Source of the DNA: Amphiscolops sp. MND2022
Taxonomy: Eukaryota
DNA length: 64,000 bases
Assembly (NCBI GenBank): GCA_964187785.1
Contig: OZ076410.1
Coordinates: 99,200,001 to 99,264,000 of the forward strand
Direction: 5' to 3'
Part shown: one piece after another, positions 871-2,946 of the stretch
Layout: each line of letters starts with the position of its first letter
Numbering within the stretch: the stretch's first letter is position 1
Position numbers and translations under genes: made by a program
Notes under the pieces: model-generated
Database searches by the model: none
What the model saw: the letters and a program-made list of their open reading frames with translations, nothing else
What the model was told of the DNA's origin: nothing

Positions 871-1961
871 TTCACTTAGCAGAAAACGAGTTATGTTTGC
901 TGGGGAAGAATTTGAATTATGTTTGAAAAATCCAAACTTTGGAAAACAATGAAAACTGATGGTATTTGCAAGAGTCTGGAGAAATTGATACAACTGCACT
1001 TCAGGCGGGTTATTTCAATTGTGTCTTTTTTACAAAATCCTTATTTTCCAAAATATAAAACAATGACAATCATTTTTGCAAGCATCATAGAGTCCTGGAA
1101 AGTCTAAGAATAGGATAACGTCAGATTGCGTAATTCTATTTATATCATCTCCATAATGATGTAAATGCATCTAATCATCCTTAAAACCCTAGGAAAATGC
1201 TGCAAAAAGATATATTAAACATCTCAAATGCTATCAGATACAGTATAATTGCATGACATTCAAAAACTGCACATTTAACTGAAAACCGCATAACTCCGCA
1301 TATACGTCAGCCACGAAACCGTAGGGTGACGCATAACACACGTGAAGATTTTCCTCACGTTCAAGTAGTAATGTATATACAGCACAATACGATCCGCATG
1401 ATATTTGCTAGAAAACGTATGTTAACGTATAATCGTCACTGCGAGAACCGCATAGTGACGTATGTTATGAATGGTGAAATGGTATGTTACCGCATACACT
1501 ACTGATTCAAAACGTATTTTGTCGCATATCCAAAAGCGCATAATGACGCATACTTGAAAACCATTTCACGCATAATGATGTATATTCGTAAGGCCATTTC
1601 ATGTATGATGACGCATCCTTACTAGTTGGAAAATGTCTAATGACGCATATTCGCAGTTCTAATTGTAGCATGATTACGCATAATGTGGAATCAGAAGTCA
1701 CAGATTGATCTTGCTTATGTAGATTTTAAGCACATGTTACTTTTATGAATGAAATTCTGATGAATTTGACATCACTGAAGGGTTCGGAAAATATCCTAGA
1801 ATGAAATTCATCAATGGGGAGAAACAAATAATCAGCATCATAATATAAAAATACCATCAACATGAGAATTAATCGGAGTTTAAAATGTTTTGTTATCAGA
1901 TCTTTCAGGTGTTCCTTTCACGGTTGCACAACGGAACCATCGCACCTTGAGGGATGCGACA
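291..1961 (-). repeat. 3' LTR of element A (1671 bp)
   Basis: Matches 15196-16874 with roughly a dozen substitutions and one 8-bp indel by hand count. Minus strand starts TGTCGC and ends TATCACA. Confidence 0.96.
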
Positions 1962-2946
1962 GTCCCGCATTTTTAAAAAGGAACAACGCTGCTTCGAAAC
2001 CATGGATGAATGCCCTTGATCGGATTGTCCTTTCCTTGACTGTTTCACCCTCATATTCCGTCGCAACCAGATATTCGCCCAATGTTTCCAGTGCGATTTG
2101 GTCGTAGCATTTCCCGCAGAATTCGCAGTATCCTGCGACATTTGGCATTACTGTTGGTATCAGCCTGATGCTATGTCTCTCCTGGGCGGGGATCAATAGG
2201 GAATTCGCGCTATGGGTCATATTGAATGGGAATCCCAACTGAACTGTGGGTTGTATCAATTGTGCCATATGTTGAATCCCATGATTGGTCCCACCAATGT
2301 TGAGAGGGAACAACATCGGGGATAGATTGAACCCTGTGATGTTATCTTGTGATAATCTTTGCTGCGGGATAGTGTCACTCCGTACTTCTTGCTCCATTGG
2401 CTCACTTGCCTGTTGATGTTGCAAAACTGTCGATTCCTGCCTATAGTTTGGCGGATACACAGGGGTAGGACGAGGTAATATGCCCTGGTCACTTGAACTT
2501 GCTCTTGGAGTTGGGGGAACCCTTGCTGTGGGGCGACCATAGCTGTTCGTTGTTCTTTCTGGGCCATTGCCCATAGTCCACGGAAATAGGTTCCCCTCTT
2601 CAAATTCGCTATCAATGAACGAACTCGGTGAGTCCGTTGCGTCGTTTTGGGGTACTCCAATTAACTCCATCAGCTCCCTCTCTAGTTGGGTTCCTGACGT
2701 AATTGTCTCAGAATTTTGATCCAATGATGCCTCTGCCTCTGGGTACAAAGAAGCTGTCGCTGCGCCCACAAAGGCTGACATGAGATTACTCCCGGTAGTA
2801 TTTATTCGGAATCTATCCTCAAGTTGGGCAAAGTCTCCGGGTGCAAGGGAAAACGCATCTTCTGATCCACTTGAAATATCCACCACATCAGGTGATATGG
2901 GAGAATAGAGACAGTCTTCATCAACGTTGAATTGGAGTTTATTCAT
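1918..2946 (-). CDS. Accessory sense ORF of element A (342 aa): acidic/Pro-Ser-Thr-rich with N-terminal VVDISSGSED and C-terminal CEFCGKC plus helical region; not env-like
   Basis: Uninterrupted ORF on the gag-pol strand. Last about 14 codons lie in the 3' LTR. No obvious signal peptide or transmembrane segment. Confidence 0.75.
   Translation of the reverse strand: MNKLQFNVDEDCLYSPISPDVVDISSGSEDAFSLAPGDFAQLEDRFRINTTGSNLMSAFVGAATASLYPEAEASLDQNSETITSGTQLERELMELIGVPQNDATDSPSSFIDSEFEEGNLFPWTMGNGPERTTNSYGRPTARVPPTPRASSSDQGILPRPTPVYPPNYRQESTVLQHQQASEPMEQEVRSDTIPQQRLSQDNITGFNLSPMLFPLNIGGTNHGIQHMAQLIQPTVQLGFPFNMTHSANSLLIPAQERHSIRLIPTVMPNVAGYCEFCGKCYDQIALETLGEYLVATEYEGETVKERTIRSRAFIHGFEAALFLFKNAGLSHPSRCDGSVVQP

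Follow-up and report, generated by a model that had tools for sequence, protein, structure and literature searches.

What is encoded by a third sense open reading frame (ORF) that lies where env would be expected in a Ty3/gypsy retrotransposon, and what might its product do for the element? This question is raised by a 64,000-nucleotide stretch of the Amphiscolops sp. MND2022 genome (assembly GCA_964187785.1, contig OZ076410.1, positions 99,200,001 to 99,264,000; hereafter the window), which holds two long terminal repeat (LTR) retrotransposons. Element A (16874-291, minus strand) is complete and carries as its third sense ORF ORF3-A (1918-2946, minus strand, ATG at 2946 and stop at 1918), which encodes an accessory protein of 342 aa, while element B (27913-60974, plus strand) carries ORF3-B (41227-42000, plus strand, 257 aa in this copy). 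An initial annotation had described both ORFs as having a motif like a SUMO-interacting motif (SIM) and had proposed a possible decoy or antagonist of the SUMO pathway; we tentatively infer such a role for ORF3-A. Our analysis indicates that ORF3-A belongs to a real, conserved and new family of non-env accessory proteins, for which a link to SUMO is credible on sequence grounds.

ORF3-A is a genuine gene, kept by purifying selection. A homologue search gave 116 proteins (115 in ENA only, one in both JGI and ENA), many of them full-length at 35-50% identity, and an exhaustive search gave 183 proteins at E 0.001, of which the matches listed comprise 150; no related loci were found among JGI metagenome or IMG/VR contigs. 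The 69 of the 116 matches that reached at least 295 aa were aligned as the full-length set of family A. That the ORF might evolve neutrally, an eventuality raised by the initial annotation, is contradicted by the breadth of homologues and by a simulation of neutral drift, in which the ORF3-A frame stayed open in 1 of 1000 runs at 60% identity and in none of 1000 at 45%. The homologue database contains open frames only; despite this, selection is also indicated by the strong difference in rate between regions, since mean column entropy is 0.5-0.9 bits at residues 261-320 versus 2.2-2.9 at residues 141-240.

The claim that this ORF is not env was borne out. With signal peptides and transmembrane anchors assessed from hydropathy only, the best 19-residue Kyte-Doolittle mean was 0.98 in ORF3-A and 0.52 in ORF3-B, and at most 1.5 across 46 family-A rows, and Pfam and PDB sequence searches returned no similarity between ORF3-A and any fusion glycoprotein. 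Pfam has no family for ORF3-A or ORF3-B and no credible one in 68 rows of the ORF3-A C-terminal alignment, and a PDB sequence search with the ORF3-A profile gave chance-level rows only (BolA2, E 0.2). As had been noted, the ORF overlaps the polypurine tract and U3: it spans an imperfect tract (1962-1974, minus strand, 10 of 13 purines) and has its final 44 nt within the 3′ LTR, whose start is at 1961. We would liken its position to that of Nef and the foamy-virus accessory genes.

Computationally, the protein consists of an N-terminal SIM-shaped motif, a long, acidic, disordered and nearly lysine-free region, and a folded, Cys-containing helical C-terminal domain. Its earlier description as otherwise low-complexity is incomplete, since the C-terminal domain is folded and strongly conserved. 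The first 120 residues contain 23 Asp/Glu against 4 Lys/Arg, and the disordered part includes a conserved acidic amphipathic segment of LxxL-hydrophobic-like type (residues 85-96; 2659-2694, minus strand), whose pattern is found in 59 of the 69 full-length members. A PTAP late domain was also considered and was rejected, as it occurs in 1 of the 69.

The SIM-like cores that had been pointed out are present in both ORFs, as VVDISSGSED at 2886-2857 in ORF3-A and as LVDISSSEDEE at 41254-41286 in ORF3-B. In ORF3-A, the phospho-SIM-like motif is preceded by SP-x-SP (residues 15-30; 2857-2904, minus strand; core 2886-2869); we take its letters to be close to those of the PML motif, and S26-x-x-E presumably fits the CK2 pattern. 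SIMs and phospho-SIMs are defined, in the available text of PMC11409511 and PMC4276917, by a short V/I/L core beside serines and acidic residues. Both ORFs have such a core flanked by acidic residues and serines, conserved within a context whose disorder is judged from composition only; each has a single canonical core, and ORF3-B has a further acidic site, [FL]D[VLI]S. The conservation across copies that had been proposed as a check was observed in both families. The core (hydrophobic-hydrophobic-x-hydrophobic) is kept in 56 of the 63 full-length family-A rows that cover the motif, and in 47 of 50 covering rows among the 52 aligned for family B (the 51 of 92 matches that reach 225 aa, together with the window copy). 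When fragments are included, 99 of 120 family-A proteins have the core, and 15 of 17 identity clusters contain at least one member that keeps it. Substitutions in family A are chiefly exchanges among V, I and L, and the adjacent serines S25, S26 and S28 are retained in 43-45 of 46 rows. Among 13 distant relatives, two that share only the C-terminal domain have an N-terminal PIYLSSD followed by an acidic run.

We examined how often such a motif arises by chance. Composition shuffles produced the 5-residue core in 3.8% (ORF3-A) and 5.3% (ORF3-B) of cases, the core inside the N-terminal 40 residues in 0.46% and 0.91%, and a stricter SIM pattern, which was defined post hoc with the motif already known, in 0.06% and 0.08%. 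A six-frame scan of the window (121,466 residues) found 19 matches to the loose core, 7 of them within ORF3s, and 7 matches to the strict pattern, all 7 within ORF3s. We consider it probable that the ORF3-A motif binds SUMO.

The region that follows the motif is almost devoid of lysine. Lysines occur in ORF3-A at positions 3, 279, 304 and 325 only, leaving a lysine-free stretch of 275 aa (residues 4-278; 2113-2937, minus strand). Codons 4-275 contain none where base composition predicts 12.3 (P about 3e-6), and the other two frames of the same strand over this region would encode 16 and 17. The property is shared by the family: among the 69 full-length members, the longest lysine-free run has a median of 233 and reaches at least 150 in 54, and family A without its last 95 residues has 0.5% Lys and a normal 4.3% Arg. 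Control gag and pol regions, including low-complexity parts, have 5.8-9.2% Lys, and in a simulation of neutral drift to 45% identity about 7 lysines were expected to arise. Of six distant relatives, four have lysine-free runs of 147-315 and two have runs of 77 and 29. According to the available text of bioRxiv 2023.01.18.524605, lysine deserts are conserved lysine-free runs that span no less than 150 aa or 50% of the length; 2.4-10.5% of proteins have one, most deserts are disordered, and they shield Slx5 and San1 from turnover. By this definition family A has a desert and family B does not. Such a desert would fit a SUMO- or ubiquitin-related role without being specific to one.

The C-terminal domain (1942-2163, minus strand), delimited from the alignment and a model, comprises a CxxC pair (C274, C277), a helical hairpin and a third conserved Cys (C335). 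Residues ~262-335 are the most conserved part of ORF3-A and are common to distant families; a hidden Markov model of the domain matched 171 times in 345 proteins and not at all in the 92 family-B proteins. The AlphaFold check suggested for the CEFCGKC-helical C-terminus was carried out with AlphaFold2 on 68 rows and gave a mean predicted local distance difference test score (pLDDT) of 72, exceeding 85 over the helical core. Foldseek searches of PDB and viral structures returned no match for the domain at E 0.001, an Atlas search gave no usable match, and the best result of a VIA fold search (Z 6.0, root-mean-square deviation (rmsd) 2.8, 52 residues aligned) was a generic helical hairpin; these fold searches, which gave no significant match, found no DNA-binding fold either. 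The generic-hairpin results do not imply a new fold, but only that no fold is recognised. The hairpin carries the conserved arginines R306 and R309, and the charge of the domain is about neutral.

Modelling supports dimerisation of this domain. A two-copy model, run without the family alignment, scored 0.50 compared to 0.02 for the best control. Among microbial proteins, 21 of 30 solved pairs attain the dimer mark and none of 23 single chains does; for eukaryotes the counts are 17 of 29 pairs and none of 30 chains. Contact agreement between runs was at least 59% and pLDDT at least 61. The modelled interface is centred on A312, F313, G316, F317 and A320; three of these, A312, G316 and F317, do not vary across 46 rows.

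We tentatively favour a reading in which ORF3-A is a dimeric, SUMO-binding regulator in the nucleus that resists modification and counteracts silencing. Since the C-terminal domain would dimerise, each complex would display two SIMs, and phosphorylation of the flanking serines would tighten their hold on SUMO. The dimer would dock onto SUMO-modified chromatin proteins at element loci and, because no lysine is within reach, would itself escape SUMOylation and ubiquitylation and so avoid being cleared. The available text of bioRxiv 533091 describes recruitment of SetDB1/Wde through SUMO-SIM contacts in piRNA silencing; ORF3-A would outcompete or divert SIM-bearing effectors of this type, blunting the SIM-dependent recruitment of H3K9 methyltransferase complexes, and the element would stay transcribed. 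A divergently encoded hAT-like zinc-finger protein, described below, may contribute DNA specificity, and ORF3-B would serve the same purpose by means of the shared motif on a scaffold that is unrelated or has diverged beyond recognition. As piRNA- and KAP1-directed silencing hinges on contacts between SUMO and SIMs, a SIM protein encoded by the element would be an expected counter-move.

A number of observations weigh against this reading. The core by itself appears in 4-5% of composition shuffles, so that a single occurrence carries little weight. It is missing from 21 of 120 family-A proteins and from two single-member clusters, and a 7-member subfamily keeps the strict core in 2, often with Thr at a hydrophobic position, as in P0065 and P0066. 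Eleven of the 13 distant relatives with the C-terminal domain have no SIM, including the long P0323 and P0344, although many of the others are fragments. Within the first 250 residues, the SIM ranks third among 8-residue conservation windows, those at residues 109 and 56 being conserved as well or better, and most of the conserved hydrophobic columns of the disordered part are retained equally well; it therefore stands beside several other linear motifs that are conserved. A lysine desert is lacking in family B (median longest run 65) and the disordered N-terminal part of the antisense protein is likewise lysine-poor (1.2%); hence, desert and SIM do not go together. The score for the dimer is the model's own confidence, its calibration did not cover predicted chains, and of the 7 eukaryotic test proteins that lacked an older solved relative just 1 passed. 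Finally, the dependence of host silencing on SUMO is assumed here, and much of the anatomy of ORF3-A would also fit an acidic transactivator, which is the main rival.

As a transactivator of the element's own promoters, ORF3-A would bind coactivators through its disordered acidic and aromatic region, while the Cys/helical dimer or the antisense zinc-finger protein would contact DNA, and the SIM would aid localisation or form part of the activation domain. Such a model works like foamy-virus Tas or similar factors. We regard it as rather unlikely, although it draws on the acidity of the first 120 residues, on the acidic-hydrophobic motif SF[IV]D[ST] (kept in 59 of 69 full-length members) together with the LxxL-type amphipathic segment, and on the head-to-head arrangement with a gene that may encode a DNA-binder and with non-coding regions rich in motifs. 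However, charge alone does not explain why Lys is depleted and Arg is not, family B has the SIM-like motif in common with family A but not the other acidic motifs, and a DNA-binding fold is what the searches with the C-terminal domain failed to find. We consider improbable an adaptor for ubiquitin ligases, in effect resembling a SUMO-targeted ubiquitin ligase, whose SIM would trap SUMOylated host restriction or silencing factors while another motif brings in an E3 ligase for their destruction. The combination of a SIM, a disordered desert and a C-terminal Cys dimer domain that holds the few lysines is the layout of Slx5, San1 and RING E3s as far as the available text of bioRxiv 2023.01.18.524605 describes it, but the 68 rows searched against Pfam contain no RING or E3 domain, just three Cys are conserved with no fold match, and one canonical SIM core is seen in place of a tandem array, although a dimer would present two. 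A motif [LP]PxY, found in 38 of 69 members, might serve to bring in the ligase; PPxY proper is present in 27 of the 69. We take [LP]PxY to be a WW-domain-binding pattern.

There is a slimmer chance still that ORF3-A acts like Rev or CERV in the export or processing of unspliced genomic RNA. This RNA spans the putative introns of the antisense gene on the opposite strand, and the ORF3 message is probably spliced or separately started. CERV of Cer1 offers, in the available text of PMC10309623, the precedent of a phosphorylated, multimerising, Cys-loop gypsy accessory protein needed for genomic RNA export, and the conserved hairpin arginines and the oligomer modelled for the C-terminal domain would suit such a function. 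Nevertheless, PDB sequence and fold searches found no likeness in sequence or fold to CERV or Rev, the near-neutral charge of the domain speaks against it, and the SIM and the lysine desert would be left unexplained. These three rivals are not fully exclusive of one another. Last, env, a small fusogen, or a neutral frame kept through its overlap with the purine tract and LTR would account for the location of ORF3-A between pol and the 3′ LTR and for the ~19 last codons lying over constrained DNA. This is scarcely believable given the lack of a hydrophobic segment in 46 rows, the outcome of the neutral simulation, and conservation over 340 codons, nearly all of them beyond the overlap.

Several features of these elements have known counterparts: non-env ORF3s along with antisense ORFs in rotifer and plant elements, and anti-silencing proteins in plant DNA transposons. 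The non-env ORF3s of animal LTR elements (bdelloid GDSL, DEDDy, coiled-coil and transmembrane types; available text of PMC5408684, in which "SUMO" does not occur) are likewise family-specific third ORFs between pol and the 3′ LTR, whereas ORF3-A has no enzyme or membrane domain and has instead a SIM-like motif, a lysine desert and a Cys/helical domain. The extra ORFs of plant elements (Grande gene23, RIRE2, and Retand ORF4 with Transposase_28) are, in the available text of PMC7264820, conserved antisense genes between pol and the 3′ LTR with their own promoter, one having a transposase-named domain; the antisense gene found here differs in its intron-containing appearance, its hAT/BED-like character and its head-to-head position with a sense ORF3, and shares no Pfam family with them. 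VANC of the Arabidopsis VANDAL transposons resembles our case as an element-encoded accessory protein accompanied by tandem motifs in non-coding parts (available text of PMC5735166), but VANDALs are DNA transposons, VANC acts by DNA demethylation and has no sequence link to ORF3-A, and the anti-silencing demonstrated for VANC is inferred here. PML, Daxx and PIAS1 have a similar V/I/L core beside serines and acidic residues (PMC4276917, PMC11409511, available text); they are host proteins with proven binding, and the homology of ORF3-A to them is limited to the motif. Like Slx5 and San1 (bioRxiv 2023.01.18.524605, available text), ORF3-A has a disordered lysine-free region covering more than half of the protein and lysines in its C-terminal folded domain, but it has no RING domain and a single canonical SIM core. 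CERV (PMC10309623) is similar in being a Cys-rich, predicted multimeric and phospho-regulated gypsy accessory protein, and differs in domains and position; the available text reports no SIM and has 0 occurrences of "SUMO". Among titles and abstract openings of the CC-licensed PMC and bioRxiv literature, we found no description of a retrotransposon ORF3 with a SIM. New here are the lysine desert, the C-terminal Cys/helical domain, and a homologous antisense gene in both elements. Even without the SUMO link, ORF3-A would represent a new accessory family with a domain of no recognised fold, kept across many retrotransposon subfamilies.

The antisense gene of element A (4580-8990, plus strand, ends approximate) sits between pol and ORF3 and appears to be multi-exon, with open segments at 4896-6323, 6368-6901 and 7813-8793 separated by GT/AG-bounded gaps, from which the exon structure was deduced. 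Element B has a degraded homologue (36400-39900, minus strand, ends approximate), which tblastn within the window matched to that of A at E 2e-9 (21% over 166 aa) and, for a second segment, at E 0.003. In both elements, ORF3 and the antisense gene stand head-to-head across a spacer of 1.2-1.6 kb; that of element A (2947-4579) contains a 65-bp tandem repeat and CpG-rich motifs and is a putative bidirectional promoter. The last antisense segment of element A has 93 homologues and no credible Pfam family, Foldseek match or PDB sequence match with the antisense profile. A Cys/His finger in the antisense protein had feature scores of 0.90-0.94 with no Pfam match, the named clusters zf-C2H2_12, FAM200-ZBED5 and zf-BED scoring 0.90-0.92 with 147-156 shared features (SPIN-DOC-like). 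The last segment aligned to the Hermes transposase entry 8edg_A at rank 17 (Z 4.2, rmsd 4.5, 143 residues), the longest alignment of the 50 rows, but with a Z tied with those of unrelated rows. As the finger likeness is by features only and the Hermes match is not significant, a hAT origin of this gene is just a lead.

Should both genes act together, this Ty3/gypsy clade would carry an anti-silencing cassette of two genes driven from one divergent promoter, combining a captured, intron-containing, hAT-derived DNA-binder with a desert-protected dimeric SUMO binder. We consider this unlikely as a whole. If true, the hAT-derived protein would recognise the element's own repeat motifs, the lysine desert would make the SUMO binder immune to the SUMO/ubiquitin machinery that this protein jams, and the element would encode an antagonist of the SUMO step in heterochromatin formation, with the SIM as the sole feature common to the ORF3 families. 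The density of ACGT is 5-15 per kb in the LTRs, the spacers and the largest gap of element A, compared to 1.0 in pol and 2.9 in flanking DNA, and short tandem repeats occur there too. In both elements, the non-coding CpG observed/expected ratio is 1.0-1.3 versus 0.72-0.75 in coding parts, and CpG-undepleted regions rich in ACGT or ATGCG with repeats of 26-65 bp lie at 1020-1900, 3911-4145, 7230-7890, 40000-41226 and 42000-43700.

Element A itself is a Ty3/gypsy LTR retrotransposon as judged by its LTRs, target duplication, primer-binding site and domain order. The 5′ LTR (15196-16874, minus strand) is 98.8% identical over 1679 nt to the 3′ LTR (291-1961, minus strand), which holds the last ORF3 codons and a copy of the 5′ part of gag; the LTRs have TG...CA termini and the element is bounded by the 5-bp target-site duplication GTCGT. 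The primer-binding site TGGTGACAGGAG (15184-15195, minus strand) is present as the identical 12 nt in element B, and no tRNA genes were found across the window. The pol region (9247-14052, minus strand) encodes protease, reverse transcriptase and RNase H, followed by integrase, in Ty3/gypsy order, with Ty3-G Gag-Pol as its top solved relative (E 1e-47), and is broken by a stop codon at 12748-12750. The gag ORF (14450-15829, minus strand), which has weak Pfam matches to Retrotrans_gag and Ty3_capsid below the curated cut-offs, starts within the 5′ LTR, so that each LTR of element A codes for the last part of ORF3 as well as the beginning of gag. About 190 gag codons lie within the LTR (15196-15829 and 291-1014), and the gag frame spans the LTR end and the primer-binding site; element B shares this arrangement (30095-30377).

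Element B is older than A, with outer LTRs at 27913-30377 and 58515-60974 (93%), the target duplication GTCTG, degraded gag-pol and an internally amplified 3′ part. ORF3-B has 92 homologues; the copy at 41227 departs from the family reading frame near 41.82 kb, and its C-terminus is therefore not that of the family, which shows an LSQ...CxC...H pattern in 39 of the 92 matches. A conserved K-[KR]-x-[KR] near residue 70 resembles what we take to be a nuclear localisation signal. CIDISTDS had been proposed as a second motif of ORF3-B; CIDIST is found in 1 of 52 aligned family-B rows and is thus a copy-specific spelling, the commonest forms at the site being EYFDVSA, EFLDLSL and ECFDIST, and it was rejected as a conserved second SIM. 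The short motif had also been called the only similarity between the two ORFs. A profile comparison agrees, as it aligns them from the SIM only, but an L-S-Q/H-P stretch over the LTR start is common to both families too, in the same codon phase and possibly imposed by the LTR sequence; both ORFs pass an imperfect purine tract and enter the 3′ LTR in that phase (for B, the copy at 46593-47180). Since the profile match reaches just 11-12% probability, homology of ORF3-A and ORF3-B is not established.

The family-B Cys-x-Cys...His-x-Cys pattern is coded entirely in U3 (e.g., 47077-47180) and may form a small metal-binding site. Five tandem units of ~1637 bp (97-98% alike) at 50039-58226 each hold the spacer region together with a 5′ portion of ORF3-B that includes the SIM-like motif, their frames from ATG being 128, 128, 105, 21 and 190 aa long. 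One ORF3-B copy (46690-46871, compared with 41540-41643 and 58204-58307) contains a 104-nt inverted segment of perfect complementarity that forms a pair of 80-nt hairpin arms. Unrelated tandem arrays occupy flanking DNA at 24273-25459 (185-bp unit, 4.7 copies) and 63454-63900 (~172-bp unit).

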